Shown piece after piece: positions 2,837 to 39,897 of a DNA stretch of 64,000 bases. The notes below the pieces were generated by a model. That model was not told where the DNA came from. It saw only the letters and a list, made by a program, of their open reading frames with translations, and searched no databases. Both the position numbers and the translations under genes were made by a program. The stretch is from a phage, in the sequence record NC_101835.1; one strand, 5' to 3'. Within the stretch, counting starts at the first letter, position 1, and each line of letters begins with the position of its first letter.

Positions 2837-2848
2837 TGGGTAACCGTT

Positions 2849-3247: not shown

Positions 3248-3264
3248 AACAGTGAGGTGTCACC

Positions 3265-3555: not shown

Positions 3556-3561
3556 AAACTG

Positions 3562-3590
3562 TTGACACAACGCTTCAGATTTAGTATCAT
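3562..3590 (+). promoter_or_regulatory. sigma70-like promoter (TTGACA-N17-TATCAT)
   Basis: TTGACA at 3562-3567, 17-nt spacer, TATCAT at 3585-3590, about 50 nt upstream of hpf-like ATG. Confidence 0.45.
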
Positions 3591-3639
3591 TGTTTTCAAA
3601 GAGAGATAGTTATTCCCTCTTCCTTAAAAGGAACACGTT

Positions 3640-3960
3640 ATGCAAATTGAAATCACTGGCAACAATGTAGAAATCACAGAAGGTATGGTATCTTTTATTT
3701 CCCGCAAAATGTCCAAGCTGGAGCGTTTACATCCCTCTGTTAACTATGCACGTGTGAGTGTAAAAGTTGAAAATGATCACCAGGAAGTTATGGCGTTCAT
3801 TTTTGACAATTCTGGAAAAGAAGTTATTGCCAAGGCTAAAGGCAGTGATGCTTACGAGGCAACTGACCGTATGGTAGATGTTGCAGCACGTCAGCTGGCT
3901 AAATGCGGTGGAAAGAAAGGTAAGGGGAAAGGCAAAGTAAAGATTGACTTTGGAGAATGA
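3640..3960 (+). CDS. hpf: ribosome hibernation promoting factor / RaiA (S30AE) family homolog
   Basis: N-terminus MQIEITGNNVEITEGM.. recalls bacterial HPF MQLNITGNNVEITEAL..; KLE and ARQLAK segments; lysine-rich tail. Confidence 0.7.
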   Translation: MQIEITGNNVEITEGMVSFISRKMSKLERLHPSVNYARVSVKVENDHQEVMAFIFDNSGKEVIAKAKGSDAYEATDRMVDVAARQLAKCGGKKGKGKGKVKIDFGE

Positions 3961-4367: not shown

Positions 4368-4458
4368 TCCTGCTTGGATTAGCATACTTCCTCGCTAAGG
4401 AAGATTTGTAATTATTTGTGGGAAAGGAGTCCCAATCTCTTACCAGAGGTGATACTAT

Positions 4459-4722: not shown

Positions 4723-4726
4723 TAAT

Positions 4727-5059
4727 ATGAAAGTACGCTTTATTGGTGAAACAATTCCTGTGCATCTCCGGTCGCCTGAGGATTCTGCAGATCTTGCATC
4801 TCAAAAGGCGAGAGGTTATGATAAGAAAGTAACCTCAACCGATGTAGTGCTTGAGGCTACTAGTCTACCTGACCCTGCTGCATTCTTTAATCATTATGGG
4901 TACTATTTCAGCAATCTGATGAATATCGGTGAGCTTGTGTTTATTAGTGGTGGAGAAATTGTTAGCAAGCTTGGCGGCGATCCGGATATCTTTCATGAAA
5001 CCTGTCCTTTTGCATTTGTGGTAGGTTCAGATGTGGAAGTTATTGAGGAGGTGCGGTAA
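4727..5059 (+). CDS. small acidic protein, paralog family 1 (copy D)
   Basis: ATG at 4727 (track TTG 4700 less likely); C-terminal FVVGSDVEVIEE matches family 1. Confidence 0.5.
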   Translation: MKVRFIGETIPVHLRSPEDSADLASQKARGYDKKVTSTDVVLEATSLPDPAAFFNHYGYYFSNLMNIGELVFISGGEIVSKLGGDPDIFHETCPFAFVVGSDVEVIEEVR

Positions 5060-5454
5060 TGGTAAGCCTATACCGTGTTGAGTATAGCTCAGATACTGTA
5101 TACAACGTAAGAAGCAAAGATCGCAGCGACAGAGTGCAAGAAATGTATGTTCTTGCCGACAGTCCGTTATCTGCAGCGTTCAAGGCAGGGGCTCTTGCAT
5201 CTCGTTGGAAATTTGAAGGTGGATCTTTCTATGAAGAAACCCTTGAAGATTCTGTTGTTATTTCTTCTGTAGAGGTTTCAGATGACTACGAAGGGAAAAA
5301 GTTCGTAATGCGGCACCCACACAGCAACATTGCGTACTACTGGGATGTTCTGAACAACGAGTGGACCCCAGATCTTCAGAAGGCTACTGTGCTAACACCG
5401 TTTTTGGCAGATAAGTTCCCACCAGAAGGTAATTTATCCGCACTGTTTCAGTAA
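5059..5454 (+). CDS. hypothetical protein, paralog family 2 (copy B)
   Basis: GGAGGTG RBS; paralog of 2849-3247. Confidence 0.55.
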   Translation: MVSLYRVEYSSDTVYNVRSKDRSDRVQEMYVLADSPLSAAFKAGALASRWKFEGGSFYEETLEDSVVISSVEVSDDYEGKKFVMRHPHSNIAYYWDVLNNEWTPDLQKATVLTPFLADKFPPEGNLSALFQ

Positions 5455-5533
5455 TTTTCTTGCACACAGGTGTTGACAACGCCAACCCTGTGTGAAATAA
5501 TACCTTCATCTTAATAAGACAGGGGACCGATTG

Positions 5534-5791
5534 ATGAAGATTAAATTGAAAAACCTTGAAACGGCAGAGATTCAGGACGGTGTTGATTTCCGTTCTAAAG
5601 ATGGTGACATCTTAGAGGTAAATATTCCAACCTACGAGCTGATTAAAGGTTTTGGCAACGTTCCGGAAGAGGATATTACAGAAATTCTTATGATGTTGAT
5701 TCTTGACGGAACTGTGTTTGTAGGTGAAGGTGAGAACGCTATTGCAATCCCAGGCCATTTTTATGAAGTAGTTGACGAAGAGGTGCTGTAA
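5534..5791 (+). CDS. small acidic protein, paralog family 3
   Basis: MKIKLKN..KDGDILEVNIPTYELIKG..HFYEVVDEEVL. Confidence 0.55.
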   Translation: MKIKLKNLETAEIQDGVDFRSKDGDILEVNIPTYELIKGFGNVPEEDITEILMMLILDGTVFVGEGENAIAIPGHFYEVVDEEVL

Positions 5792-6142
5792 ATGAAAGTA
5801 GAAATTACCGGTTTTGATGTGAATGTGGTTCCGGAAGATATTTTAGCTAAACTTCCAGAAGGTTTTGGTAACGGCGTTGTGGTGGATGCTGTTCCTCCTA
5901 CCAAAGACATTCTGCTGCAGTATGGTGTAGCAGAGGAAGATGTCGATAAAGTTCTTACAATGATGGCAATCGATCGTGTTGTCGTTGTTAAAGGTCTCGA
6001 TAATTTTGAGAGTGATCCCTTGATTATTCGTGGAGATGACTACAAAATCATCGATAATGAAGGCCAAGAGTTCTATGAACCTTGTGCAGAAGATATTCTT
6101 AACTTATTACTGGAAGCAGGTACCGAAGAGGAGGACGAATAA
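5792..6142 (+). CDS. small acidic protein
   Basis: ORF directly abutting upstream stop; acidic C-terminus EEEDE. Confidence 0.5.
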   Translation: MKVEITGFDVNVVPEDILAKLPEGFGNGVVVDAVPPTKDILLQYGVAEEDVDKVLTMMAIDRVVVVKGLDNFESDPLIIRGDDYKIIDNEGQEFYEPCAEDILNLLLEAGTEEEDE

Positions 6143-6471
6143 TGAAGATTGACCCGTTACTGAAGGCTCGTGCAGAAAAAGCGTACACCATTAAGCTGAC
6201 CAACCTGGTTCCTACTTGTCATCCAGATGTAGGTTGGCCTGAAGGTCTGGTAGAGGGGACTGTAACAGCTGCATACCTCCCTAACATCAAATACCTCATG
6301 GAAATCTTGGAGCTGGATGAGGAAACGGCAGAAGAGTTCCAGTTGGACATGAAACAAAGTGGGACTCTGGTTATTCACGGGTGGTACAATACTAGAGATG
6401 CAGAAGACCCTCTGGTAACTTCTAATCTGGCATATGAAATCTTAGGGCCTTTGAACCTGGAGGAAGACTAA
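6142..6471 (+). CDS. small acidic protein
   Basis: GAGGAGGA RBS; start overlaps upstream stop. Confidence 0.5.
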   Translation: MKIDPLLKARAEKAYTIKLTNLVPTCHPDVGWPEGLVEGTVTAAYLPNIKYLMEILELDEETAEEFQLDMKQSGTLVIHGWYNTRDAEDPLVTSNLAYEILGPLNLEED

Positions 6472-6758
6472 TGAAAGATCTGGTTAAGATTAAGATTAAA
6501 GATACCAATGGAGAACTCAGTCATTTTGGAATTAATGATGGTGACGAGCTGATCGCACACCTGCCTACCAAGGAGGTTGTAAGCAAAGCAGTTGCCGGAG
6601 AAGAAGCTGCAATGCAGGCTGCAGGTGTGGATGAAAACTATGTAGCTATGTGCATGTGCCGAGATCAGGTTGTTCTGTATAAAGCGTATCGACCAAACGG
6701 AGCCACGGAGTGGCTTGTATTCCGACCCGAAGGATATGAAATCTTAGAGGCACTATGA
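6471..6758 (+). CDS. small acidic protein, paralog family 3
   Basis: GGAGGAAGA RBS; NDGDELIAHLPTKEVV.. ending EGYEILEAL. Confidence 0.55.
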   Translation: MKDLVKIKIKDTNGELSHFGINDGDELIAHLPTKEVVSKAVAGEEAAMQAAGVDENYVAMCMCRDQVVLYKAYRPNGATEWLVFRPEGYEILEAL

Positions 6759-6847
6759 TAAATCTTGCCAAGGTTGCAACGGCACTGTTAGTTATTTGCT
6801 GGTCTGTAACCTTAACACTGTGTCTTGTATTTCAGTGAGGTGCTTGT

Positions 6848-7111
6848 ATGAACATCCTGATGTGGGTTATAGCAGTGGCGTTTGTTGCATGTTTTTGCTG
6901 CTGGGTTGCGGTGAGGATTTCTGTAGCTACCCTTCGGAAGTTGGGGTTCTCAGAATGGGATATTAATATCCTTTCTTTTCGCAATGAAACAATCTCAGCC
7001 GCCCTGCTTTGTAAGAAATTTAAGTGGGAACCTTGTGAGGTCATGAGCTATCTAAGAACAGGCGATATCCCTGAAAGATTTAAAAAAGTTCTTGACGGCA
7101 AGGATAAATGA
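6848..7111 (+). CDS. small membrane protein
   Basis: GTGAGGTG RBS; N-terminal MNILMWVIAVAFVACFCCWVAV hydrophobic. Confidence 0.5.
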   Translation: MNILMWVIAVAFVACFCCWVAVRISVATLRKLGFSEWDINILSFRNETISAALLCKKFKWEPCEVMSYLRTGDIPERFKKVLDGKDK

Positions 7112-7120
7112 CAGTATAGT
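7092..7120 (+). promoter_or_regulatory. sigma70-like promoter (TTGACG-N17-TATAGT)
   Basis: TTGACG 7092-7097, 17-nt spacer, TATAGT 7115-7120. Confidence 0.4.
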
Positions 7121-7139
7121 GACTAACAAGAGGTGAGGA

Positions 7140-7280
7140 ATGACTGATTTTACTGAAGCTTTAATGATGGCCTTGTCTGTTTTAGCGCTATCGGTGTGTT
7201 TTGGGGCGTTATTCACATCTCTGGTTAAAGTTTTACATACAGTATTATTACCCAAGGAGCGCAGTAATGACGAAGATTGA
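7140..7280 (+). CDS. small hydrophobic peptide (46 aa)
   Basis: ATG after AGAGGTGAGGA; below ORF-track size cut-off; hydrophobic core ALSVLALSVCFGALF. Confidence 0.3.
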   Translation: MTDFTEALMMALSVLALSVCFGALFTSLVKVLHTVLLPKERSNDED

Positions 7281-7518
7281 CTTAAATGCTGGAGACCATG
7301 TTGTTGTCAAATGCATCGGAGATTATCTTGGATTCACAATCGGCAATACTTACGAGGCGGTAGTGGCGAAGGTTTACCATGATAAAGTCCTCAGTCTTGT
7401 ATTTGACTGCGATGATGATGGGGATGACCGATACGTCTGTGAGGTGCTGGCACGAGACGATAGTGAAGACCAGAAATTCCTGGTTATTGAACTGAACGGT
7501 ATTTTTGTAGAACGTTAA
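7267..7518 (+). CDS. hypothetical acidic protein
   Basis: ATG after AAGGAGCG; track start 7201 less likely. Confidence 0.5.
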   Translation: MTKIDLNAGDHVVVKCIGDYLGFTIGNTYEAVVAKVYHDKVLSLVFDCDDDGDDRYVCEVLARDDSEDQKFLVIELNGIFVER

Positions 7519-7546
7519 TTTAAAACAACATAAGGAGACTCTTACT

Positions 7547-7852
7547 ATGGCTAAATCTAAAGTTGAACTGTTCACCTCTCTTCCTTCTGACACTGCAGAG
7601 CGTGATCGCCTTCGCAAAACAATCGAAGAACTGGTAGAACTCCAACTTCAGATTAAAGATCTGAAAGATGCCATTAAGGATATCATTCTCGTTGAGAAGC
7701 AGGATCACCTGTATTCTCCTAAATTCATCAAATCTCTGGTGGCTACCGAGTTCGATATTCGCTATGAGGCTGAAAAACGTCGCGCTAAAATCGAAGAAGA
7801 GGTTGAGCACATGTCTGAGGCAGACATTCTGTTCAAACGCTCTGTAGAATAA
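7547..7852 (+). CDS. hypothetical coiled-coil protein
   Basis: TAAGGAGA RBS; followed by strong intrinsic terminator. Confidence 0.6.
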   Translation: MAKSKVELFTSLPSDTAERDRLRKTIEELVELQLQIKDLKDAIKDIILVEKQDHLYSPKFIKSLVATEFDIRYEAEKRRAKIEEEVEHMSEADILFKRSVE

Positions 7853-7859
7853 TGACAAA

Positions 7860-7884
7860 GAGGGGGGCTTGGGCCCCTCTTTTT
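7860..7884 (+). terminator. rho-independent terminator
   Basis: GAGGGG/CCCCTC stem, 8-nt loop, then TTTTT. Confidence 0.65.
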
Positions 7885-7907
7885 ACTATCTATGAAGGAG
7901 ATTTGAG

Positions 7908-8234
7908 ATGGGTATACCGATTACTGTAAAAGAGCTAAATGAACGTGATGCAGGTGGTCTATGGCCTGCACGAAAAATCCGCTGCGTCTATATGAAAGAG
8001 AATCTTGAACATCTTGATCAACAGATAAAGGTCGGCGATATTTTCGAGGTCTTCTATTCCAATCGGCGCAACTGGGAAACCATTCAGCCTTCTGGTTTTG
8101 TTCTTGCCAAACTTGACACTGGAGAAGTGATTATCCCTGGGTTGGATATTGTCTTCGAAATTATCCAAGAGTGGGATCCGGATAAGATTAGATACGAAGA
8201 ATTATTCGGTAAAGGTATTATCAAACCTGTGTGA
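7908..8234 (+). CDS. hypothetical protein
   Basis: GAAGGAGA RBS. Confidence 0.55.
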   Translation: MGIPITVKELNERDAGGLWPARKIRCVYMKENLEHLDQQIKVGDIFEVFYSNRRNWETIQPSGFVLAKLDTGEVIIPGLDIVFEIIQEWDPDKIRYEELFGKGIIKPV

Positions 8235-8242
8235 GGTGGATT

Positions 8243-8542
8243 ATGTCTACAAAGGCGGCTAAATACTCCTATATGCCATCAACCTCTGCAGAGGTAGACT
8301 TTAGTTTCGATGTGTTTCCACTGTTTGAGGTGGTTCTGGCATACCCAACAATACTAACTACTCCTGAATCACTTGTGCCTGTTAAGTTGCAGAACGCTAT
8401 GCATTCTATGCACTACAACAATAAATGTAGGCACAGATGGTGTCAGGACGAGGAAAAAGATTTGGATAGTTTGAGAGATTTTGACAGTCACCTTTTGACA
8501 CCTTTTAGCTACTCCAACCTTGATAAGCCCTCATGGGTATAG
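8243..8542 (+). CDS. hypothetical protein
   Basis: ATG after GAGGTGG; track start 8231 less likely. Confidence 0.45.
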   Translation: MSTKAAKYSYMPSTSAEVDFSFDVFPLFEVVLAYPTILTTPESLVPVKLQNAMHSMHYNNKCRHRWCQDEEKDLDSLRDFDSHLLTPFSYSNLDKPSWV

Positions 8543-8566
8543 CAAAATATCAAATTTAAGACACCT

Positions 8567-8593
8567 AGGACGCTCTGTGGCGTCCTTTTCTTT
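8567..8593 (+). terminator. rho-independent terminator
   Basis: AGGACGC/GCGTCCT stem, loop TCTGTG, then TTTCTTT. Confidence 0.55.
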
Positions 8594-8755
8594 GTCTGGT
8601 GCACGATTGCATACCTTGGACAGATAATCTCGTTACAGAGCGTTTAAGAGCTTCCTACAAACAACTCCATATTTCGAGCGTAGCGAGAACGCACGTCCGT
8701 TTTGACCCAAATCACCATACGCTCGGATTTTAACCAAACCCTCGCGGCGTTTCTA

Positions 8756-8784
8756 TTGACACATTACAGCTCCAGTGATAATAT
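8756..8784 (+). promoter_or_regulatory. near-consensus sigma70 promoter (TTGACA-N17-TAATAT)
   Basis: TTGACA 8756-8761, 17-nt spacer, TAATAT 8779-8784. Confidence 0.55.
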
Positions 8785-8804
8785 CCACACATCATTTGGA
8801 GAAT

Positions 8805-8906
8805 ATGGAATACACTATGAGAACATTGTCCGAAGTTTTAGTGGTGATCCTGATGATCATTACGTCCATAGCGGCTGTTGCCGGAATACTCACAGGTGGA
8901 ACATGA
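8805..8906 (+). CDS. small hydrophobic peptide (about 30 aa)
   Basis: Just downstream of promoter; GGAG before ATG; ..LSEVLVVILMIITSIAAVAGIL..; stop overlaps next ATG (ATGA). Confidence 0.35.
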   Translation: MEYTMRTLSEVLVVILMIITSIAAVAGILTGGT

Positions 8907-9115
8907 TCAACACACATGCATCTGAAGAGACATCCGAAGGAGTGACCATATGTCCCTTGGATGAGCCAGTTAAAGAGGAAAACTTAGATTCTGAGGACTC
9001 TTCATCTTCGTCCCAGACAGATCCTGAGGCTGATGACCTGACGTGGGAGGACATCGTAGATATCTGGTTCTCTATTATGCCTGAGCACGAAGAGTTCAGA
9101 GGTGGTAGACTATGA
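8903..9115 (+). CDS. small acidic serine-rich protein
   Basis: ATG after AGGTGG, coupled to upstream peptide; replaces the longer track ORF 8702-9115 which reads through the promoter. Confidence 0.35.
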   Translation: MINTHASEETSEGVTICPLDEPVKEENLDSEDSSSSSQTDPEADDLTWEDIVDIWFSIMPEHEEFRGGRL

Positions 9116-9234
9116 AGCACCGAGCCCACACAGGTTCCTCATGCTAAAGCATGGCCTGAAGAGGCAAACGTGCATAATTCCTGCGCATTTGGACGTATAA
9201 TCCTGTTCACACTCTCATTTCCAGAGGAGATTTT

Positions 9235-9450
9235 ATGAAGATAGAGATATTTGGTGGAGCTGACAACACTCGTGGCCTGATTTACCTTGAATTCGATGAA
9301 TCATACCTGCCAGAGGTGTTAAATATAGACTCTGTTGCTGAGGCTTTGGGAGTAAACCCTAAAGAACTCCACTCTTGTGCTGAGATCGATGGTTGGGAAG
9401 AGACCATGAACATTGATTTCAGTGAAGTAGAGGATGAACCGCTGGACTGA
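9235..9450 (+). CDS. small acidic protein
   Basis: GAGGAG RBS; MKIEIFGG.. acidic; last rightward gene before the non-coding zone. Confidence 0.5.
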   Translation: MKIEIFGGADNTRGLIYLEFDESYLPEVLNIDSVAEALGVNPKELHSCAEIDGWEETMNIDFSEVEDEPLD

Positions 9451-9800
9451 CACACAATTAGCTGCCCGGCTAAAGTGCTGGAAGCACCTATAACACATCT
9501 TTCAACTAAATTTCCTACCACCACAATCACTTACCTCCCACACATGACTGTTTGCTTGTTTAGTGAGCAGTCATGCCTTGACATTCTTGCCTATCCTGAT
9601 AAAATTAAGTTCTTCTCTTTTCTTTTACCGAGTAATTCGGGTTTTCTGTTCTCTTCGGTTTGAAGGGGTATGGAGATACACCTGAGTGAACAGGGTGAAC
9701 AACCGAACCTTTGGCTATGGCATTAGCATGGCGAAGCGGACGGGTGACGAAAGAGGGGCCGGAGGACACCAGTCACTGCCATATGATATATGGGTGATAA

Positions 9801-12536: not shown

Positions 12537-12800
12537 TTATTTGTTGCTCATCCAGTTTTCCCAAGCTGCCTGATAATCTGCCTCACTACGGCGGATCTCT
12601 TCTTGCTCTTCAAGGCGGATCTCTTCTTCCAGGTACCCCAAGATGTCAGCCTTTTTAGTCTGGCGCAGCATCCAGTCATCTTTTTTGCGAGTGAAGATCT
12701 TATAAGCTTTCTCGCAAACCTCTTTTTTGCTACCTTTCTGGACTTCAAGAACACGATAAGCCATATATTGAACTAATTTGAGCTGATCAAGACGTTTCAT
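12537..12800 (-). CDS. hypothetical protein
   Basis: AAGAGG RBS. Confidence 0.55.
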   Translation of the reverse strand: MKRLDQLKLVQYMAYRVLEVQKGSKKEVCEKAYKIFTRKKDDWMLRQTKKADILGYLEEEIRLEEQEEIRRSEADYQAAWENWMSNK

Positions 12801-12860
12801 GATGTTTACCTCTTTGTGCGGTTCTGATTAGTGGGCCTTTTGGCCCGTGTCATTATCTTA

Positions 12861-13133
12861 TTACTTATGGCGGCAGAATTCAAGCGTTTTTAATTGATAA
12901 TCTTCCTCAGCTTGGAGTACGACCGCCTCGATCATTTCGTTGGCATTGTTAAAGCCATAACCTTTAGCGAACTCATCCGCGCCACCTTCGTGATCATGTT
13001 CTGCGTTCATCGCTTCCACAAAATGGAATTCCAAATTGTTGAGGTAGGGGCTTGATGTTCCGTCCTCTTTTTCGATGAGATCCCAAATAGCATTAAAACG
13101 TGATTCGACTTCTTGATTAATCCAGCTTGACAT
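12861..13133 (-). CDS. hypothetical acidic protein
   Basis: GAGAGGAAAA RBS. Confidence 0.55.
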   Translation of the reverse strand: MSSWINQEVESRFNAIWDLIEKEDGTSSPYLNNLEFHFVEAMNAEHDHEGGADEFAKGYGFNNANEMIEAVVLQAEEDYQLKTLEFCRHK

Positions 13134-13344
13134 AGTGTTTTCCTCTCTCCTGGTTGTTGTGTGGGCACTTTTGCCCCTTCAAGATAAATGTTACCCCACC
13201 CCATGGCAGATGTCAACGGTTTTTATAGTTCTTATATGACAGGCAGGCCCGGTGATTGTCTCCCCCCGTCGCCAGGTGCCTGCCGTGAAACAAGTATAAC
13301 AAAAAACAGGACCATTGCAAGCCCTGTTTTGTAGTTTATAAATA

Positions 13345-13970: not shown

Positions 13971-14061
13971 TGTGTCCATCCTCTTTCTGCTACGTTTAAG
14001 GCGGCGGTAACCGCCTGTTTATGCTTTGTTGGTTAATTTTCGGGTATAGGTATAAATTAAA

Positions 14062-14391: not shown

Positions 14392-14468
14392 GGTGTTTAT
14401 TCTCTTCTGTTAGTAACCTTATTCATGGGGCCGCTACCACAGCCCCAAGGTAAGGCAGCTATGTGCTT

Positions 14469-14805: not shown

Positions 14806-14985
14806 TTACCGATAATCATCATATGCTTTATTTACCTGGCGAATATAACATTCAAAAGCCAAATCAATAGATTTATATTCACGGATATACTCACCATAGG
14901 AAACCACATACATTTCTATAGCTTCCTCATATGCGAGGAGAATAGAATCTAAGCCTACGATCTCAGTCTTTGCAATAATAGCCAT
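14806..14985 (-). CDS. hypothetical small protein (59 aa)
   Basis: MAIIAKTEIVGLDSILLAYEEAIEMY..; AAAGAGGATAAAAAATC before ATG; below track cut-off. Confidence 0.35.
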   Translation of the reverse strand: MAIIAKTEIVGLDSILLAYEEAIEMYVVSYGEYIREYKSIDLAFECYIRQVNKAYDDYR

Positions 14986-15060
14986 GATTTTTTATCCTCT
15001 TTGTGGTTGGTGGGGTTCGTTGCCCCTTTGATTTATATATTACAGTCTTATATGGTCATG

Positions 15061-15294
15061 TCAACTATTTTCAAAAAATTTTTCTGCTGTGATATTCTTC
15101 CCGGTAGGGTTCGCTACTTTCAAAATTTTATCATGCACTGGACGCCCAAAAGAATAAGCGCCGTACACAGTAAACCAATAATCGCCGTCAGGTTGTACTA
15201 TTACTGCCGCATATGGTACGCCTTTTTCGTTTTTGCTGACAAAATAGATCACGTTGCCATTAATAGCCTCGGCGCGTTTAATTTGTTCCATCAT
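15061..15294 (-). CDS. hypothetical protein
   Basis: AGAGAGG RBS. Confidence 0.5.
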   Translation of the reverse strand: MMEQIKRAEAINGNVIYFVSKNEKGVPYAAVIVQPDGDYWFTVYGAYSFGRPVHDKILKVANPTGKNITAEKFFENS

Positions 15295-15350
15295 GATGAT
15301 TTGCCTCTCTTTATTTTCATAATTGGGGGGCCTTTTCGGCCCCGCCAGGT

Positions 15351-16175: not shown

Positions 16176-16214
16176 TCCTTGTTAACTGCGTGTTATTTTA
16201 CCACGATTAAAATT

Positions 16215-16258
16215 TACTTTACTGATGGCCCTGGCGTCAAGGCCATCTAAAAATAAAT
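16215..16258. repeat. 44-bp conserved hairpin element, copy 1
   Basis: TTTACTTTACTGATGGCCCTGGCGTCAAGGCCATCTAAAAATAA; hairpin GATGGCC/GGCCATC; directly follows the stop of 16259-16459. Confidence 0.55.
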
Positions 16259-16459
16259 TTACAGGCCTACAATCTCTTTGATTCGTTTAACTGCTGCCTC
16301 AGCGCCTTGGGGGTAGAAATTATGGTAACCGATCACGCGAGTGATACTAATCGCAGTTTGATGATCTTCATAATAGCCCTTGAAGATTTCTTGACCGTCA
16401 ATCAGCACGGCAATTTTTTCTTCTTTTTTGAAGTTAATAACGCGGATATTGTTGCTCAT
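16259..16459 (-). CDS. hypothetical protein
   Basis: AAAGGAGAAA RBS. Confidence 0.5.
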   Translation of the reverse strand: MSNNIRVINFKKEEKIAVLIDGQEIFKGYYEDHQTAISITRVIGYHNFYPQGAEAAVKRIKEIVGL

Positions 16460-16716
16460 TTTGTTTCTCCTTTCTGGTTTTTGTGTTGGTGGGGATTAGC
16501 TCCCCGTTGATTATTATTATCCATATTTCGGACCGGATTGCAACACCCCGGAAGAAAAATTTTTTGAAAAAGTTAGGCCCCCAGGGATCGGGGGCCGTTA
16601 TCAGTTACTTACAGCGATAAAATACATCCCTACGCCTAACAATATTTCAAGGGCGATGATCTCAAGCCATACCATAACCCGGCGCACCTTATCGGTGCGG
16701 GGCTTATCCTTGGTTG

Positions 16717-17310: not shown

Positions 17311-17375
17311 TTCTATGTACCTCTTTTGCAGTTCTGTTTAACAATAAGGCGGCAAATATGCCGCCTGTTACCTGA

Positions 17376-17755
17376 TTAAAAATTATCGCCGTAAATCTTT
17401 CCGCTTTCTGCCCACACCACCACGCGGGGCATACTATCCCACACGTCTTGTTTTAGATTGAGCGCGTGCAATTCTTCGGTGGTGCCCATACCAGGCACGG
17501 GCTGATTGTATACTGCAAAACGACCACCCGCATAGTCATAGGCCAGAGTTAAATCACACTGGATCATCTTTTTGATCATGGCATTAAGCATGGCGTTAGC
17601 CGCATACTGATCACGTTTTAAAGGCAACTCTTTGATTAGTTTGCGATAGTTTTCAATGTGATCGCACACTGTTTCACGTGGAAGATCTTTCATATCCTCG
17701 CGAAAGGTAACCAGGTTAAACATGACGGTGTCAATAGCTTTAGTAGTGTTTTTCA
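17376..17755 (-). CDS. hypothetical protein
   Basis: AAAGAGGAAAACATC before ATG (MKNTTKAID). Confidence 0.5.
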
Positions 17756-17810
17756 TGATGTTTTCCTCTTTGTTTTGTGTGGGGGGCAAACGTCTTGCCC
17801 CTTGAGTTTT

Positions 17811-17838
17811 AATATAGCAGGTTTTTAGATTATTGCAA
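17811..17838 (-). promoter_or_regulatory. sigma70-like promoter (TTGCAA-N16-TATATT)
   Basis: On minus strand, followed by a GC hairpin (17781-17801) and RBS of 17376-17755. Confidence 0.4.
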
Positions 17839-17846
17839 CACTTTAT

Positions 17847-18470
17847 TTATGAAAAACTCATCTCTCCATATTCATCCACATCAAACCGCCAATCATTGGC
17901 CTCGATAAGGCCGATCAGGTTTTCGGTAGTAAATTGTTCAAGATAAGCTTGCTCCAGGTCTACGTAAACCTTGCGGGATAGTTCCCGTACGTTCTCGGTG
18001 ATCAACTCTTCCAGCTCTTCAACCTTACTTTCTTGCTTGGCTGTCAGGTCTAGCCATGTAGTATCGATGTACCCGCTTACAGTGTTTTCGTGACTATAGC
18101 GGCTATATGGATCACGCTCAACACTTGCGGATAGCTCGCCATCGTGCATTGTGCCGAACAAGTGACGAATTGAGCGGAATTTAGTCAGAGACTTGACTTT
18201 ACGCAAGAATTTTTCTAAATCCACGTTTTCCGCACTGATTGACGCGCCGTCGCCCTGGCACCAAAAGCCGGACCAATGTACCTTGGTATCTTCAAGGCCA
18301 TACTCTGGAAAGATATGTTCTTTATAGTCTTCAATTACACTTTCTGCAAAAAAGTTATCCCCGCTGTGTTCTTCTCTTTCGCGGACCATTTCAATAGCTT
18401 TTTCTTTTTGTTCATCGGTCAGCACGTCGAAAGATAAATTGTAACCTGTGGTAATGTTAACGGTGGTCAT
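17847..18470 (-). CDS. hypothetical acidic protein
   Basis: ATAGGAGAAAATATC before ATG. Confidence 0.55.
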   Translation of the reverse strand: MTTVNITTGYNLSFDVLTDEQKEKAIEMVREREEHSGDNFFAESVIEDYKEHIFPEYGLEDTKVHWSGFWCQGDGASISAENVDLEKFLRKVKSLTKFRSIRHLFGTMHDGELSASVERDPYSRYSHENTVSGYIDTTWLDLTAKQESKVEELEELITENVRELSRKVYVDLEQAYLEQFTTENLIGLIEANDWRFDVDEYGEMSFS

Positions 18471-18527
18471 GATATTTTCTCCTATTTTCTTTGTTAGTGG
18501 CGGGAAGTTTTCCCGCCTGTGTGTTTA

Positions 18528-18555
18528 AGTATACTTATCGAGATTTACTTGTCAA
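18528..18555 (-). promoter_or_regulatory. near-consensus sigma70 promoter (TTGACA-N16-TATACT)
   Basis: Minus strand TTGACA (18550-18555) and TATACT (18528-18533); then 5-prime UTR hairpin GGCGGGAAAACTTCCCGCC and RBS. Confidence 0.5.
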
Positions 18556-18805
18556 CACTATTTTTTAAATTATTGTGGCGCAAAATGCTTAAAATCTCTT
18601 CAACGTCATCAACACGGCGGCAATTTTTAAACGCTACCAATTGCCCCATGATTTTAATCACTGGACGGCCTTGCCAGTGCCCCTGGAGAAAGCGCGCCTT
18701 GACTTTATCGGTGGAACTATCACGCCACCAAATGGCCTTGTTATTGCAGTAGTAAAAATTATTCAGGACAACATCAACTTTATCAAAATTTTTTAATTTA
18801 CGCAT
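18545..18805 (-). CDS. hypothetical protein
   Basis: AAGGAGTAAACGCC before ATG. Confidence 0.5.
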   Translation of the reverse strand: MRKLKNFDKVDVVLNNFYYCNNKAIWWRDSSTDKVKARFLQGHWQGRPVIKIMGQLVAFKNCRRVDDVEEILSILRHNNLKNSVDK

Positions 18806-19051
18806 GGCGTTTACTCCTTCCTTCTTGCTTTGATGTGGTTAGTATATCCGGACTATTCCAAGGTGTCAAGCTTTAAATAAAATCACTGTCAATGATATTT
18901 TTTAACACCATAAAACGGCCCTGGGTGATGTTTTCAGGTTAATAAAGGGGATTGCATAGGTAGGGGCTTTTGTGGCGTTTGTGGGGCCAACCAGGGGCGC
19001 TATTCGTAGGATAGAAATAAAAAACCCCGCACAATGGCGGGGCGTTGGTTG

Positions 19052-19249
19052 CTATTTGTCTTTGTGGCGGTATCGTTCCGCTTGTCGTTCACGTTCCAAA
19101 AGCAGGCTGGGTAATTTGCGATCATAGTGATTTCGCCAGATCTTCCCAAATCTTTTCGGCTTATTCAGTTTATTGTTACGCTGGCGTCGTTCCGGCAGCT
19201 CTTCGGAATCATGAGATCGCTTTACAATCTTCTCAAAATTAATCTTCAT
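19052..19249 (-). CDS. small basic protein
   Basis: AGGGGGGAATAT before ATG (MKINFEKI); K/R-rich. Confidence 0.4.
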   Translation of the reverse strand: MKINFEKIVKRSHDSEELPERRQRNNKLNKPKRFGKIWRNHYDRKLPSLLLERERQAERYRHKDK

Positions 19250-19592
19250 ATATTCCCCCCTTGCTAACTTCAATATTGGCCTGAATAGCCCGGATACGGC
19301 GCTTTATAACCTCCTGATCCTTGCAATCATATCCCCAAAAGTCTACGATTTTTGCGCCTCCAGCCTTTAGGCGGTATAGTGTTTCTTGCATCTTGTAAGC
19401 CGGGATCGGTCGCGGTGTTACCTGGTCGCCCTTCTCATTCTTGTACTTGATAATGTAGTCTTCATTGTCGTTGAATACCCAAAATGGGTATTCTGTGAGC
19501 GCGTTGCTCTCTTTTTCGTTTTTAGATTGGATCTTGTTTACAATTAAAGCCGTAGCAATAGCGCCAATAATAAAACTTGCCCCGCTGATCAT
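19239..19592 (-). CDS. membrane-anchored protein
   Basis: AAAGGAGAAAGTAC before ATG (MISGASFIIGAIATALIV). Confidence 0.5.
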   Translation of the reverse strand: MISGASFIIGAIATALIVNKIQSKNEKESNALTEYPFWVFNDNEDYIIKYKNEKGDQVTPRPIPAYKMQETLYRLKAGGAKIVDFWGYDCKDQEVIKRRIRAIQANIEVSKGGIYED

Positions 19593-19667
19593 GTACTTTC
19601 TCCTTTCATTGTGTTGATAAACTATCTTTATAGATGGCCCTGCTACCAGGACCACCGAAAAAACAGC

Positions 19668-19913
19668 TTATTTGACGATACCGACAAAACAGATCCCGCC
19701 TTCCCCTATATAGGCAATATCGGTAATTTTATAATTTGTCAAGATCCGCGTGTTCAGATCATTAATAAAATCGGTCATCGCGTTGGTGTGGTTGTCTTCC
19801 GTGTCTAAGGCATAATCCCAGGTGTAAACCTTTTTACGTCCGAAGCCTTTTACCATGATACGGGCGCTTTTGGTGTTGGTAGGGGCATAATATTTGGTGA
19901 TTAGTGCTGCCAT
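19668..19913 (-). CDS. hypothetical protein
   Basis: AGAGGAG RBS. Confidence 0.5.
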   Translation of the reverse strand: MAALITKYYAPTNTKSARIMVKGFGRKKVYTWDYALDTEDNHTNAMTDFINDLNTRILTNYKITDIAYIGEGGICFVGIVK

Positions 19914-19956
19914 GGTTTTAACTCCTCTGAATTAGTTCAGTGTTAACAGTATAAAG

Positions 19957-20000
19957 TTTACTTTATTGATGGCCCTGAAGTCAAGGCCATCTAAAAATAA
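19957..20000. repeat. 44-bp conserved hairpin element, copy 2
   Basis: TTTACTTTATTGATGGCCCTGAAGTCAAGGCCATCTAAAAATAA; directly follows the stop of 20003-20344. Confidence 0.55.
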
Positions 20001-20002
20001 TC

Positions 20003-20344
20003 TTACTCGTTTTCTTCCAGCTCCGCAAGCTCTTCTTTTGCTTCTTCTAACTCTGTCTGTAGTTCCTGGTATTCTTCATCGTCCTCAATATCCAGGCTGT
20101 CGATGTAGTCGCTAAATCCGCAGCGGTAAGCGATAGGATCTAGCTCCTTGAGGATACGCGACGGAAGAAAAGAAATGTTTCCGATCATAATTTCGCCGTA
20201 GATCTCGTCTAACCATTCATCATAGTTTTCGTCGTACTTGTCCTCGTCGATTTCAAAGTTATCGATCTTGTTCTCAAGGTCTGCGATCTGTTTTTTCAGC
20301 GCGGCGATCTGCATAGCTTTTTCTGCGGCGGTCATAGTAGTCAT
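20003..20344 (-). CDS. acidic coiled-coil protein
   Basis: AAAGGAGAAAACACC before ATG; E/D-rich. Confidence 0.5.
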   Translation of the reverse strand: MTTMTAAEKAMQIAALKKQIADLENKIDNFEIDEDKYDENYDEWLDEIYGEIMIGNISFLPSRILKELDPIAYRCGFSDYIDSLDIEDDEEYQELQTELEEAKEELAELEENE

Positions 20345-20395
20345 GGTGTTTTCTCCTTTTGTGTGCTCTGGGAAGTTTTCCCGTTTACGTGTTTA

Positions 20396-20423
20396 AGTAT
20401 ATCGATCTAAGTTAGTTTGTCAA
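20396..20423 (-). promoter_or_regulatory. near-consensus sigma70 promoter (TTGACA-N16-TATACT)
   Basis: Same promoter-hairpin-RBS layout as 18528-18555; hairpin GGGAAAACTTCCC. Confidence 0.5.
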
Positions 20424-20577
20424 TTAAAAATTTAAGAAAAATTTTGCAAAACTGTTAGCGCTACTCATTAACATTTGCGCCAGGATGTAACCGACAACGC
20501 AAACGATAATAGTTACCTTTGTGTATTGGCGTGTAGTGCTCATCTTAAAGCCCCCTTTTTTCGCTTAGTTGAGATTA

Positions 20578-20622
20578 GTTTACTTTATTGATGGCCCTGA
20601 AGTCAAGGCCATCTAAAAATAA
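20578..20622. repeat. 44-bp conserved hairpin element, copy 3
   Basis: GTTTACTTTATTGATGGCCCTGAAGTCAAGGCCATCTAAAAATAA; directly follows the stop of 20625-21020. Confidence 0.55.
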
Positions 20623-20624
20623 AC

Positions 20625-21020
20625 TTAGTAAGTTTTCAGTACTTTACCGTCCAACCTGTCAAGCTGGATCTCGATAGCTGCAGAAAACCTATTGTAAACC
20701 ACATCGCCCATAGAATCCAACCAGTCTATGACATTATACACCTGCTCTTTATTCTTGCAAGTCCGGATCCGTTTCATTACGTAAGACGGATCAATATTAG
20801 TGCTCCCGTTGTTGTGGTCATGCGCCTGGCCTGCTGCACTGGTTATAGATTTTACAACCACCTGAAAGGGCTTTAAGGTGCCTTTTGCGTTCATCTCACG
20901 CGCTTTTGCGGCGCGGTTGTTATATGTTACACAACGGCGGCAAATGTTGACTAAATGCATGTCAATAATTTTTTCATCGTTTGCCAGTTCGTTCATGATG
21001 CGGCGTACGTTCTTATTCAT
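20625..21020 (-). CDS. hypothetical protein
   Basis: AAAGGAAAAAAGATC before ATG (MNKNVRR); track start 21119 lies upstream of promoter and RBS. Confidence 0.5.
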   Translation of the reverse strand: MNKNVRRIMNELANDEKIIDMHLVNICRRCVTYNNRAAKAREMNAKGTLKPFQVVVKSITSAAGQAHDHNNGSTNIDPSYVMKRIRTCKNKEQVYNVIDWLDSMGDVVYNRFSAAIEIQLDRLDGKVLKTY

Positions 21021-21069
21021 GATCTTTTTTCCTTTGTGCTGGCGGGAAACATTCCCGCCTTTTGTGTCT

Positions 21070-21097
21070 AGTTTACTTAAATTTTGCAGCGTGTCAA
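21070..21097 (-). promoter_or_regulatory. sigma70-like promoter (TTGACA-N16-TAAACT)
   Basis: Followed by 5-prime UTR hairpin GGCGGGAATGTTTCCCGCC (21043-21061). Confidence 0.45.
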
Positions 21098-21103
21098 TGA
21101 TTT

Positions 21104-21502
21104 TTATTCGTGGGCGCATGTCACAATGTGCTTTTTATAGCCCAGGTGGTCAGCAAGTGCCGACAAAAACTCTTCTTCGTAGATCCAGCCGTCGGCAGTG
21201 ATCCCCATAGCATTTAATGCGCTCTCAAGTGCTGCGTTAGCTTTATCGTAACCGTGACCGCTAGCCTTGCCGCCAGTATAACCGTACTTATTGTTCTTGT
21301 TGTCGTGAATCCAAAACACGCAGTAGTGAGTGTTACCACTGGCGGCGGCATAATACCGGATCTCAGCTACTTCGTGCAAATTATTGTCATCGTCCAGGCC
21401 CACCAGATTATAAGCCTTGTAAAATCCACGATCACGGCGGCAGTTCTTGACATCAGAAAAAGAAAAGTCGGCATTATCAAAATTAAAGGTTGTGGTTTTC
21501 AT
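21104..21502 (-). CDS. hypothetical protein
   Basis: TAAGAGGATAAAATC before ATG. Confidence 0.5.
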   Translation of the reverse strand: MKTTTFNFDNADFSFSDVKNCRRDRGFYKAYNLVGLDDDNNLHEVAEIRYYAAASGNTHYCVFWIHDNKNNKYGYTGGKASGHGYDKANAALESALNAMGITADGWIYEEEFLSALADHLGYKKHIVTCAHE

Positions 21503-21566: not shown

Positions 21567-21768
21567 TTATTTTTTATTAAACCAGTGGTTGATCTGACCT
21601 TTTGTCAGGGCGCAACGATTAAGCTGTTGCAGGGTATAGCTATGACCGCGACGAAATTTATAAAGGCCTTGCCCGTTGTTGATGGTTACATCCACCCGGC
21701 AAATCACTTGATTGGTGACCACCTGGCGAGTGTTGCGACGTACTTTAATTCCGTAGGCGTTCATGATT
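21567..21768 (-). CDS. hypothetical basic protein
   Basis: AGAGGATAAAAAAATC before ATG (MNAYGIK). Confidence 0.4.
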
Positions 21769-21850
21769 TTTTTATCCTCTCTGTTAATTGGTGTGGTGTT
21801 GTTCACCTTGCGAGGATAAGAATAACAAGAACTGTCCGAGCTGTCAACCA

Positions 21851-22069: not shown

Positions 22070-23040
22070 GCCCACCAGGTTTACAAGCCTTCATTCTCCC
22101 CTACCTGGTCAGTTAGGTCCTGCCAGGCTGGCCCCGCCAGGTTGCAGCGGTTAGCGCATCAGGTTAGAAAAATTTTTTGAAAAGTGTTGACAGCGGCCCC
22201 GCCAGGTGGCACAATATACCTATCGAAAGGACGGCAGGCACTGGTGACGGGGGAGACAACCACCGGGGATGGGCGCTGCATAAAATGAGAACGATTATCA
22301 TTATCATTTAAAAATTTATGCAAAAAATCCTTGCTTTCTTTGTCCTGTGTGATACTATAATAACAAGCCGGGGCAACAGGGGCCGGGAGACAATCACCGG
22401 GCCTGCCCGTTATTCTGCAAACGAGAATGATTATCATTCAAAATTCTAAATGAGAACTCCTCGCATTTAATAAATTTAATTAGCACGCTAATTACCTACC
22501 GTGACAATTATATATAAAATAATACCTCCTAAAATATTTCCATATACAAATTTTAAAAATCCATTTCTGAAAACGAAAAATCGATTTCGTCCCCAAAAAT
22601 TTCAGGTCGAGATCCGGAACGATTTCCAGAAAATCCGATTTAGAAAACGAAAAACAGATCGAGTACTGAGAAATTTATCGAGAAAAATTTTCAGAAAATC
22701 CAAGCCATGAAATGAAAAGTAGATCGAGTACTGGAAAAATTGTACCGCAACCCACTGATAGTGATGGGTTTTCCGTCATAAATCACTAAGAGTGAGTGGA
22801 GAAAGGTATGGTGGAGAGGTGTGTATGTGTGGGAAATCTGTAATGGTGGCCTGAAATATGGTGCAAACGGCTAGATAGATTGGCACAATTTTCCGCGCCT
22901 GTGTTGAAAAAATCCATTTTAGTTTTCGATCCATTTTCTGATTTTCTAAGGATTTTAAAATATCCTGGTAGGTAAAATATCAAAAGGAGGAAATCCATTT
23001 TAGAAATCCCCCTTATACTTGATATGCCAGGAATTTTCAA
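22070..23040. repeat. non-coding repeat island (GC-rich motifs, tandem about 60-nt units, AT-rich iterons)
   Basis: GGCCCCGCCAGGT x2; two units GGGAGACAA(C/T)CACCGGG...GAGAA(C/T)GATTATCATT; 22500-23040 has repeated AAAATCCATTT(T/C) and AGATCGAGTACTG. Confidence 0.5.
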
Positions 23041-26528: not shown

Positions 26529-26556
26529 AAAAATGCCCCACCCTTTCGGGCAGGGC
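26529..26556 (-). terminator. rho-independent terminator
   Basis: Minus strand hairpin GCCCTGCCCGAAAGGGTGGGGC then TTTTT; identical copy at 38270-38296. Confidence 0.6.
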
Positions 26557-31929: not shown

Positions 31930-32205
31930 CAATAGTTCAGGTAGGTCGTTAAGCTACCCCGCACCATTACGTGCATAGCCATACGTTTTCACGTAGGATC
32001 GGACCATCTCATATTCCTATGATAAGCAACCACAGGAATCCTCCCATTTCGACCGCACTTGCTGGTCTACTTCCTTTCGGAATGGCCTCTGAGCGTTCGC
32101 TCTTTTGAGCGCTTCGTTGCGGATTACCTTGCCATAAGGTTTAGGCTTCCCGCAGTTAAAGAGGTTATTCGACATAGATTACTCTATGAAGCCACAATGT
32201 TATTT
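31930..32205 (-). other. putative group I self-splicing intron in DNA polymerase gene
   Basis: 276 nt between ..YYH and DE..; 5-prime exon ends in U, intron ends in G; GUGG near intron start can pair with exon CCAU; P-like AACUGCGGGAAGCC and Q-like AAUCCGCAACG; GAAA-capped hairpins. Confidence 0.5.
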
Positions 32206-39193: not shown

Positions 39194-39495
39194 CAGAAAC
39201 CTCCCACTTCTTCAGCAAATGCAGCTGCTGTCGTCGCTGCATCCAGATAGGACTCTAGTTCACGGGCTGCACGTTTGTAAATTGAGTGGCGCATATCGTT
39301 TGGCAGTTGGTGGAAGTCCACCTCTTCACCGTTGTGGTAAACACGCACATCGGTAATTTGTCTAAATCCGTAATAGTCAACATCAGAGTCACGGCACTCC
39401 GAGTCTGGCAGCTGGACAACTGCTTGAGCTTCCACAGTAAACATATCGTCAAGTTCGAAATCGATTTCAAAAGTGTATGGTTTATAACGTTTCAT
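39193..39495 (-). CDS. hypothetical protein
   Basis: AAGGAAG RBS. Confidence 0.5.
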   Translation of the reverse strand: MKRYKPYTFEIDFELDDMFTVEAQAVVQLPDSECRDSDVDYYGFRQITDVRVYHNGEEVDFHQLPNDMRHSIYKRAARELESYLDAATTAAAFAEEVGGF

Positions 39496-39555
39496 CGTTT
39501 AGTGCTTCCTTAGTTTTTGTGGGGAGGAGTGCCTCCCCTTTAGACTAACATCTTA

Positions 39556-39897
39556 CTACTGAAGGTCTTCAGAGTCAAGCTCAAAAAGAATCAAACTGTG
39601 CATGCCTGCAGAGAGATCAACGCACCCTGCAATAATAAGGGTCTGATAGTAAGGTTCAGCACCATCAATGTCTTCGTTAAAATCTACAACAAGATAGTCA
39701 CCTTTGTTAAAGGTGTATTTGTCCGATGTAAACGCAAAACCTACCCAGTCCCCTACTGCAGGATCTTTATCAGTCACCTTTGTTAGCAGTAGATCTTTTT
39801 CACGAGATCTTTTAGTAAAATCGTGAATCACAACATCCTTCTCTTCAGGAGTTGGATTGCCGCACACGTAGTTAACTATATTTCTCCACAAACTCAT
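39556..39897 (-). CDS. hypothetical protein
   Basis: AGAGGGGGA RBS; coupled to helicase gene. Confidence 0.5.
   Translation of the reverse strand: MSLWRNIVNYVCGNPTPEEKDVVIHDFTKRSREKDLLLTKVTDKDPAVGDWVGFAFTSDKYTFNKGDYLVVDFNEDIDGAEPYYQTLIIAGCVDLSAGMHSLILFELDSEDLQ

Follow-up and report, generated by a model that had tools for sequence, protein, structure and literature searches.

Along the leftward genes between positions 17,756 and 21,097 of the phage sequence NC_101835.1, a sigma70-like promoter, a GC-rich hairpin and a Shine-Dalgarno (SD) sequence recur in this order, which raises the question of what a hairpin placed between a promoter and a ribosome-binding site might do. We addressed it in a stretch of 64,000 nucleotides (nt) of this sequence, hereafter the window, to which all positions refer. 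The region 17500–21400 belongs to an rV5-like myophage (Vequintavirus), with about 120 megablast relatives at 90–99% identity. The promoter–hairpin–SD pattern, termed class A below, is real, non-random and conserved. With moderate confidence, we read its units as composite early-gene expression cassettes of the kind described as PeSLs in T4-type phages, in which the hairpin would serve as a 5′-leader element stabilising or insulating each mRNA.

The preliminary description had proposed near-consensus sigma70 promoters ahead of four leftward genes, and a minus-strand promoter scan found such a promoter at all four sites (Table 1), the one at 17838–17811 being TG-extended. PhagePromoter predictions deposited with the Gotham record cover all four, and the rV5 record annotates one of them (P192, equivalent to 20423). 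That many individual genes carry their own near-consensus sigma70-type promoter is supported at the sequence level, in agreement with the rV5 paper and the Gotham predictions. Each of the four genes also has the proposed SD, 8–9 nt ahead of its ATG. The hairpins had all been assigned to the GGCGGGAA type, which is exact at two sites, truncated at one and reduced to a merely structural likeness at one. The exact 19-mer GGCGGGAAnnnTTCCCGCC occurs twice in the window (18517–18499 and 21059–21041; 0.13 copies expected), and the hairpin at 17801–17783 has the arms GGGGCAA/TTGCCCC instead of the GGCGGGAA arms. The units at 20423 and 18555 are 76% identical across 54 nt. A position in the 5′ leader, as had been suggested, is what one expects of a hairpin located past the −10, and the SD stays accessible in the folds.

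To delimit the pattern, we used a strict scan, requiring a promoter with at least 9 of 12 matches, a perfect GC hairpin starting 7–14 nt past the −10, and then an SD and a start codon. It returned nine minus-strand units, compared with a mean of 0.25 and a maximum of 2 in 100 dinucleotide shuffles. All nine lie on the coding strand, eight of them within 13.1–21.9 kb, and the remaining 73.5 kb of the nearest genome gave no comparable unit, only two marginal and dissimilar matches. A possible tenth unit on the plus strand (3562–3642) corresponds to promoter P144 of rV5, upstream of a RaiA-like gene; its hairpin is purine-first, with a stem that is imperfect here and perfect over 7 bp in rV5.

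The nine units share their build. Their promoters score 9–11 of 12, with spacers of 16–17 nt, and orthologues alternate between TATACT and TATAAT. Upstream of the −35, at least 15 of 20 nt are A or T in six of the nine units (window average, 56%). The hairpin starts 9–13 nt past the −10 in all nine and consists of a G-rich 5′ arm and a C-rich 3′ arm, followed by an A/C-rich spacer to the SD; arms measure 4–9 bp and loops 3–7 nt, and their sequences vary from unit to unit. Intergenic gaps with cassettes are 64–92 nt long and are occupied by the cassette. On the coding strand, the 8 nt after each hairpin contain 0–1 T, and on the plus strand the 8 nt beyond it contain at least 5 T in four of the nine. 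When predicted leaders were folded, the hairpin was practically the sole structure, and SD and AUG were almost always unpaired. At the gathering score, Rfam 15 matched only a group I intron in the whole window and no leader-hairpin family, and an E-value search of 12.5–22.5 kb gave only chance-level matches (E ≥ 0.38). MAFFT and RNAalifold applied to 23 paralogous units did not recover the stems, because arm and loop lengths differ. A covariance model was avoided because fitting an alignment to the hairpin would make the argument circular; the evidence comes instead from shuffles, from substitution patterns in orthologues, and from the promoter-first and hairpin-first tests described below.

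For the substitution test, thirteen relatives were aligned to the nine units, with promoter hexamers and SD included in the flanks. Substitution density was 3.4% in the stems (35/1044) and 14.1% in the loops (54/383), with 5.8% and 5.4% in the two flanks. Orthologous loops can flip to their reverse complement (AAC to GTT, TGT to ACA), and some loop changes lengthen the stem (for example GGGGA gctaa TCCCC to GGGGAG aca CTCCCC). Orthologues of the 17838 unit likewise retain the hairpin via G·U changes and stem-extending changes. A hand tally of single stem changes, which is weak evidence, gave about seven that are G·U-compatible on the coding strand, two A·C and four plain mismatches.

The same arrangement recurs in other phages, namely Av-05, a phi92-like phage and a PBECO4-like jumbo phage. 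A hairpin-first search of EmilieFrey, a phi92-like phage (Justusliebigvirus), turned up 12 hairpins with GCGGGAA/TTCCCGC or GCGGCA/TGCCGC arms within about 10 kb; 11 of them have a TTGACA-16/17-TAnnnT promoter 8–13 nt upstream and an ATG 17–31 nt downstream. Conversely, a promoter-first test counted promoter-like sites whose 5′-proximal structure lies below the 5th percentile of background, which applies to 12 of 29 sites in EmilieFrey, 3 of 9 in Av-05, 4 of 26 in the window and 4 of 23 in rV5. A 348.5-kb contig of a PBECO4-like jumbo phage (IMG/VR; L033) carries five cassettes at 2534–9460, i.e., within 10 kb, each with a perfect TTGACA-16-TATAAT promoter, the conserved TACATCAAGG, a GGGGAGAA/TTCTCCCC hairpin, SD and ATG; the cassette type thus spans very different genome sizes. 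IMG/VR contigs of 148–153 kb contain the same cassette with an identical hairpin. The IMG/VR scan with the identical 19-mer was informative for four large-phage contigs only. A T-run follows the 19-mer in 107 of 232 oriented sites, mostly unrelated U-tailed hairpins, so that the hairpin itself is generic and its placement is the specific part.

A common start point can be predicted from these units. When 31 units from four phage lineages were aligned on the −10, 27 had a C at position 7 and 29 a purine at position 8, which was A in 22 cases. A pyrimidine at −1 and a purine at +1 form the classical initiator, here at the usual distance from the −10. The alignment predicts transcription to start at this C-purine motif, 7–8 nt past the −10, which would leave 2–5 unpaired 5′ nt before the hairpin in 29 of the 31 leaders.

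Hairpins of the block also occur without a promoter. On a crude gene map of 11–25 kb, most intergenic gaps hold a G-first GC hairpin, and the density of perfect GC hairpins between genes is 3.8 times that in coding sequence. Some of the intergenic hairpins have no recognisable promoter (Table 1), and those at 12846, 15682 and 14760 have a weak one only. Ten U-less hairpins lie 20–35 nt from the next start codon and 7 to more than 500 nt from the previous stop, the largest values reflecting open reading frames (ORFs) missed by the crude gene caller. These spacings indicate that the hairpin is positioned relative to the downstream start codon and, where a promoter is present, to the −10. The U-tailed hairpins of the block are more than 100 nt from the next start codon. 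The canonical terminator at 19043–19024 precedes the 18869 promoter and is separated by 219 nt from the next start codon, and the others (16596–16576 and 13330–13303) likewise stand upstream of promoters. Apart from these, two 96%-identical U-tailed terminator hairpins were noted on the minus strand at 26530–26556 and 38270–38296. The latter, about 20 nt past a good promoter (TTGACA-17-TACAAT at 38347) and closely followed by an SD, could be an attenuator.

Table 1. Promoter–hairpin–SD cassettes (class A), class B repeats and related elements of the window.
Feature	Position	Strand	Sequence elements	Remarks
Class A cassette	21018..21097	-	TTGACA 21097-21092, 16 nt, TAAACT 21075-21070, hairpin GGCGGGAAtgtTTCCCGCC 21059-21041, SD AAGGA 21034-21030, ATG 21020-21018	precedes a 131-aa ORFan; hairpin -14.6 kcal/mol, z -3.5
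Class A cassette, degenerate hairpin	20342..20423	-	TTGACA 20423-20418, 16 nt, TATACT 20401-20396, GGGAAaacTTCCC 20382-20370, SD AAGGAG 20358-20353, ATG 20344-20342	precedes a 113-aa ORFan; hairpin 5 bp, -5.9 kcal/mol, not significant
Class A cassette	18468..18555	-	TTGACA 18555-18550, 16 nt, TATACT 18533-18528, hairpin GGCGGGAAaacTTCCCGCC 18517-18499, SD AGGAG 18483-18479, ATG 18470-18468	precedes the gene of a 207-aa protein; hairpin -14.6 kcal/mol, z -4.9; -35 overlaps the end of the upstream ORF
Class A cassette	17754..17838	-	TTGCAA 17838-17833, 16 nt, TATATT 17816-17811, hairpin GGGGCAAgacgtTTGCCCC 17801-17783, SD GAGGA 17768-17764, ATG 17756-17754	precedes a 126-aa ORFan; hairpin -12.1 kcal/mol
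Weak class A cassette, outside 17781-21097	21762..21847	-	TTGACA-17-TATTCT, 4-bp hairpin GGTGaacaaCACC 21807-21795, ATG 21764	-4.5 kcal/mol, not significant
Class A cassette	16457..16543	-	TTGCAA-16-GATAAT, hairpin GGGGAgctaaTCCCC 16505-16491, ATG 16459	
Class A cassette	14983..15064	-	TTGACA-16-TAATAT, hairpin GGGGcaacgaaCCCC 15026-15012, ATG 14985	hairpin 5-7 bp in relatives
Class A cassette	13131..13216	-	TTGACA-17-TAACAT, hairpin GGGCAaaagTGCCC 13176-13163, ATG 13133	
Isolated class A cassette	39493..39578	-	TTGACT-17-TAAGAT, hairpin GGGGAGGcactCCTCCCC 39538-39521, ATG 39495	replication-gene region; -14.1 kcal/mol
Possible tenth unit	3562..3642	+	TTGACA-17-TATCAT, 8 nt, hairpin AAGAGAG...CCCTCTT	derived coordinates
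Promoter without leader hairpin	18869-18841 (element 18841..18892)	-	TTGACA-17-TATACT	second TTGACA upstream, 18892-18887
Canonical intrinsic terminator	19024..19043	-	GCCCCGCCattgtGCGGGGT then TTTTTATTT	7 T in the 8-nt tail
Promoter-less intergenic hairpin	17347..17366	-	AGGCGGCAtattTGCCGCCT	35 nt before ATG 17311
Promoter-less leader hairpin	15327..15343	-	GGGGCCgaaaaGGCCCC	32 nt before ATG 15294
Promoter-less leader hairpin	13999..14016	-	AGGCGGttaccgCCGCCT	28 nt before ATG 13970
Promoter-less hairpin	14427..14446	-	GGGGCTGtggtagCGGCCCC	precedes a small ORF; one U.G pair
Class B repeat, copy 1	20577..20627	-	GATGGCC(TTGACTTCAG)GGCCATC	
Class B repeat, copy 2	19955..20005	-		98% identical to copy 1
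Class B repeat, divergent copy	19620..19670	-		hairpin kept by G.U pairs on the minus strand; TTGACT lost
Class B repeat, copy 4	16211..16261	-		88% identical to the reference copy

A second repeated element, class B, comprises 51 nt with the upstream stop codon TAA, a T-run, a hairpin carrying a −35-like TTGACT in its loop, and a −10-like TAAACT. Neither strand of it forms a canonical terminator, and about three copies are present in each of about 120 rV5-like records. Because the divergent copy keeps the hairpin and has lost TTGACT, the hairpin rather than the −35-like hexamer seems to be the conserved part. One IMG/VR contig (L124) lacks 20004–20576, i.e., two genes and the 20423 unit, and has a single class B element at the junction, a loss that recombination between class B copies 1 and 2 would account for. 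The "3 pieces" of phages A6-1 and A51.2, considered as an insertion in the region, were rejected as an artefact of the class B repeat. In two further relatives, S127 BCL3 (L134) and an IMG/VR contig (L125), an extra ORF cassette of 260–540 bp is located at TTGACA 18892–18887, and the tandem TTGACA of the window (18864–18892, minus strand) appears to be a microhomology deletion scar. Relatives differ by many indels in this region, and other junctions coincide with the promoter at 24411, SD/ATG repeats (12797–12832 and 14408/14700) and terminators (13304–13344 and 26577). An ORF module shared between lineages is ORF 15061–15294 (minus strand), which shows about 90% nucleotide identity to an ORF of EmilieFrey (L132, 19353–19583) and weaker matches in PBECO4-like jumbo phages. 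The homology with EmilieFrey extends from the ATG region (ATCATG) to just past the stop codon and ends short of the next promoter. The sequences upstream of the shared ORF are unrelated: the window has a GGGGCC hairpin and no promoter, and EmilieFrey a complete promoter followed by a GGCGGGAA-type hairpin. At the DNA level, the repeated cassettes may mark the boundaries of exchangeable ORF modules.

Taken together, these features are compatible with the following course of events. The host sigma70-RNA polymerase would initiate at the near-consensus promoter, which in most units has an AT-rich segment upstream, and the transcript would begin at the C-purine initiator, 2–5 nt ahead of a stable hairpin with G first and C last. 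Past the hairpin, an unstructured A/C-rich spacer would lead to a good SD and to the start codon, ATG, of a single small ORFan. The 5′-proximal hairpin may limit the access of the 5′-end-dependent decay enzymes RppH and RNase E and insulate the ribosome-binding site from variable upstream sequence. If this role covers read-through or processed transcripts in addition to primary ones, it would also explain the hairpins found 20–36 nt before start codons in the absence of a promoter. The stabilisation or processing of mRNA raised in the preliminary description is plausible. We infer an RNA-level leader role from the fixed register to −10, initiator and ATG, the open SD, the missing U-tract and the contrast with the terminators of the block. 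According to a review (PMC3997798), the dependence of RppH and RNase E on single-stranded 5′ ends accounts for the stabilising effect of 5′ structures, which has long been known.

Several observations weigh against this interpretation. Three of the nine hairpins of the window are weak (−4.5 to −6.5 kcal/mol) and no better than shuffles, and strong promoters of the block at 18869, 21563, 12470 and 24405 have no hairpin. Some orthologues carry uncompensated stem mismatches, and judging from the alignments, selection on the stems is clearly not absolute. Among the 13 relatives compared, no indel junction falls inside the four class A units between 17,756 and 21,097. A predicted tail of 3–5 nt is at or above the length at which the ompA hairpin still protects, and it is long enough for RppH; a tail of 2–5 nt would be borderline for protection. 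A literature search for transcription-start, half-life or time-course data on Vequintavirus found none. Finally, one PeSL stem-loop showed terminator-like activity and lowered downstream expression (PMC2839356).

The last point leads to the idea that the hairpins are terminators or attenuators damping upstream read-through before the next promoter's transcript, a role proposed for PeSL stem-loops, which we consider unlikely here. One PeSL stem-loop cut lacZ expression about as much as rrnB T1 did (PMC2839356), several hairpins, including the one ahead of the 207-aa gene, are labelled "terminator" in the record of phage Alma, a T-run follows the identical 19-mer at many IMG/VR sites, and hairpins are present in promoter-less intergenic gaps too. 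On the coding strand, however, none of the nine hairpins is followed by more than one T in 8 nt, and each lies past the predicted start of its own unit, so that efficient termination would abort the unit's own transcript at about +25. Moreover, the canonical U-tailed terminators of the block stand upstream of promoters, and hairpin position is tied to the −10 and to the ATG that follows rather than to the preceding stop codon. This register also bears on the proposal that the hairpins are REP-like intercistronic barriers to 3′ exonucleases, protecting the upstream cistron in read-through or processed transcripts. Hairpins between promoter-less genes (17366, 15343, 14446 and 14016) would fit such barriers, as would their GC-rich, stable stems without a U-tract and the intergenic excess of hairpins. 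Yet a barrier for the upstream gene needs no fixed distance of 9–13 nt from the −10 and 20–35 nt to the ATG, combined with a variable one from the upstream stop, and we give this proposal little credence. Equally doubtful is a recognition tag, in which the conserved leader module (C-A start, 2–5 nt, G-first hairpin, often of the GGCGGGAA/GGGGAGAA type) would be more than a passive stabiliser and would be bound by a phage or host factor, for example a shut-off endoribonuclease, an RNA chaperone or an RNA polymerase-associated factor, that would co-ordinate the fate of all early transcripts. The module is common to early cassettes of Vequintavirinae, Stephanstirmvirinae and PBECO4-like jumbo coliphages.

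Action at the DNA level, with the palindromes as operators at which a dimeric repressor would silence early promoters, or as cruciform or recombination sites, is in our view very improbable. Perfect palindromes just downstream of promoters do occupy an operator-compatible place, the GGCGGGAA/TTCCCGCC sequence is re-used across several phage lineages, and cassette-type indels occur in the block. But arms and loops differ between units, which makes half-site spacing variable; loops, which can invert, change at four times the rate of stems; and G·U-compatible stem changes outnumber A·C changes, although this tally is weak evidence. Recombination, for its part, used the class B repeat, TTGACA microhomology or ATG/stop boundaries and not the class A palindromes. 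A similarly slim chance is assigned to the termination of antisense transcription, in which the A-rich initial transcribed region would act as the T-run on the plus strand. A terminator scan did list five of the hairpins as plus-strand terminators (18499, 21041, 17780, 15012 and 16485), and four of the nine have the T-rich plus-strand tail described above; the other five have 2–4 T only, though, the promoter scan gave no strong plus-strand promoters in the block, no plus-strand genes were identified there, and the constant ATG distance and the C-purine register would be left unexplained. The missing U-tract makes efficient intrinsic termination on the coding strand unlikely. Other candidates were dropped. 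An RNase III site was rejected on stems of only 4–9 bp, and an SD-sequestering switch on the open SD in the folds. A put- or nut-like antitermination RNA was set aside in view of a single short hairpin of variable sequence. A DNA-hairpin promoter of the N4 type was set aside without a formal test; in N4, the hairpins precede the start site and depend on a virion RNA polymerase, an enzyme that to our knowledge has not been reported in rV5-like phages.

Regarding the timing of the block, its genes had been described as middle genes, a description that found no support; the block consists of small ORFans adjoining the physical genome end (the terminal repeat in Gotham). Its counterpart in Gotham lies 6.4–10.3 kb from the terminal repeat and contains small leftward hypothetical genes. 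PHROGs and Pfam searches with ten proteins of the region yielded a function for none and a single T7 gp1.1-like domain, and by these searches the genes flanking the class A cassettes are ORFans. Near-consensus host-type promoters, small ORFans near the genome end and the analogy with Certrevirus and PA5oct suggest that the genes are more probably early than middle. In Certrevirus, a comparable gene arrangement was termed "likely early" (PMC7344957), and for the jumbo phage PA5oct, early expression was demonstrated for genes in the terminal-repeat region, and phage production proved sensitive to rifampicin (PMC7318152).

Some further features of the window and its relatives were recorded. The closest megablast relatives are "Campylobacter phage D1/D#" records (99%) and the E. 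coli phages phiWec191, PDX, Gotham and JES2013. The "Campylobacter phage" title stands on GenBank records of the MG0656xx series that are flagged UNVERIFIED yet 94–99% identical to E. coli rV5-like phages, and the host name on them looks doubtful. The gene of the 207-aa protein (17847–18470, minus strand) has homologues in rV5-like, PBECO4-like and Klebsiella jumbo phages and more distant ones in Bacillus, Xanthomonas and Caulobacter phages; some records label them "YeeU-like antitoxin", and the protein has no Pfam match. In phage Muenster, this gene lies inside the predicted terminal repeat. A related-locus search with the 207-aa protein returned two rV5-like contigs only. The group I intron at 31980–32215 (minus strand; Rfam RF00028, 64.7 bits, E 4e-14) maps, by comparison with rV5, between two annotated pieces of a DNA-polymerase ORF. 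Three direct repeats of about 65 nt at 22538–22741 and a 33-nt repeat pair at 22283 and 22419 sit in a poorly coding stretch at about 22.1–23.4 kb.

If the proposed reading holds, the PeSL concept would reach beyond T4-type phages to at least three other lineages of large virulent coliphages, in the form of self-contained promoter, stem-loop and ribosome-binding units around swappable ORFans, and the cassette would represent a compact natural design for strong, context-independent early expression. Promoter-plus-hairpin cassettes and 5′ stabilising hairpins are both established ideas, and no new biological question is raised. In practical terms, annotation pipelines label these hairpins as terminators or miss the promoters, and in rV5-like therapeutic phages the cassettes might be usable as insertion points or expression modules.

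Among known systems, the promoters themselves resemble those of related phages. For rV5, 33 sigma70-like promoters and no homologues of T4-type late-transcription proteins were reported (PMC3606486), and the Certrevirus phages CB7, CR3, CR8 and CR9 have sigma70-like early promoters (PMC7344957). Shared features are the TTGACA-N16-18-TATAAT-like sequence, UP-like A/T tracts, a location among short hypothetical ORFs and the absence of a phage RNA polymerase gene; in a term search, neither paper mentioned a hairpin following the promoter. Intrinsic terminators use the same kind of GC hairpin, and the identical 19-mer is U-tailed in many unrelated viral contigs, whereas the class A hairpins have no coding-strand U-tract and lie downstream, not upstream, of the promoter. 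Leaders with a 5′-terminal stabilising stem-loop, among them that of T7 gene 10, offer a further comparison. In E. coli, the ompA and papA leaders are of this type, according to the passage of PMC3997798 that cites Emory, Bouvet and Belasco. Class A leaders share with all three a GC hairpin that starts a few nt into the transcript (in class A, by prediction), an open SD beyond an unstructured stretch, and an expected hindrance of RppH and of RNase E attack from the 5′ end; by comparison, class A hairpins are shorter (5–9 bp), their 5′ ends are predicted and the 2–5 nt tail is borderline.

The closest described kind is the PeSL, known from cassettes of the T4-type phages RB49/phi1, PST/T4 and nt-1/KVP40 (Arbiol et al. 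2010, PMC2839356; Comeau et al. 2014, PMC4122927). According to the same two papers, PeSLs consist of a near-perfect sigma70 promoter preceded by an AT-rich segment, a Gn-loop-Cn stem-loop that can occupy any of five positions (among them "downstream of the -10" and "overlapping the -35"), and an SD and ATG at the 3′ end, and they cluster among ORFans in hyperplastic regions, with degraded half-elements and a role in indels. A literature search found no PeSL report outside T4-like phages, cyano- or haloviruses, and in blastn searches of 50,697 phage records, the class A and class B units matched almost only Vequintavirus, with one class B match in another coliphage. On sequence grounds, class A is best regarded as an analogue of PeSLs and not a homologue. 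Differences concern the stem-loop, which here always lies 9–13 nt past the −10, in the predicted leader, and in T4-type phages mostly within the promoter or ahead of it; the missing U-tract of the class A hairpins; and the phage lineages. Common to both are the near-consensus sigma70 promoter, often AT-rich upstream, with a Gn-loop-Cn stem-loop beside it; the bounds set by an upstream stop codon and a downstream SD and start codon; and the ORFan-rich variable region with degraded versions, insertions, deletions and ORF swaps. As for PeSLs as indel endpoints, class B flanks the L124 deletion, one ORF module is bounded by ATG region and stop codon, and no junction was seen within the four class A units of Table 1 at 17,754–21,097 in the 13 relatives; the PeSL subclass whose stem-loop overlaps the −35 is comparable to class B.

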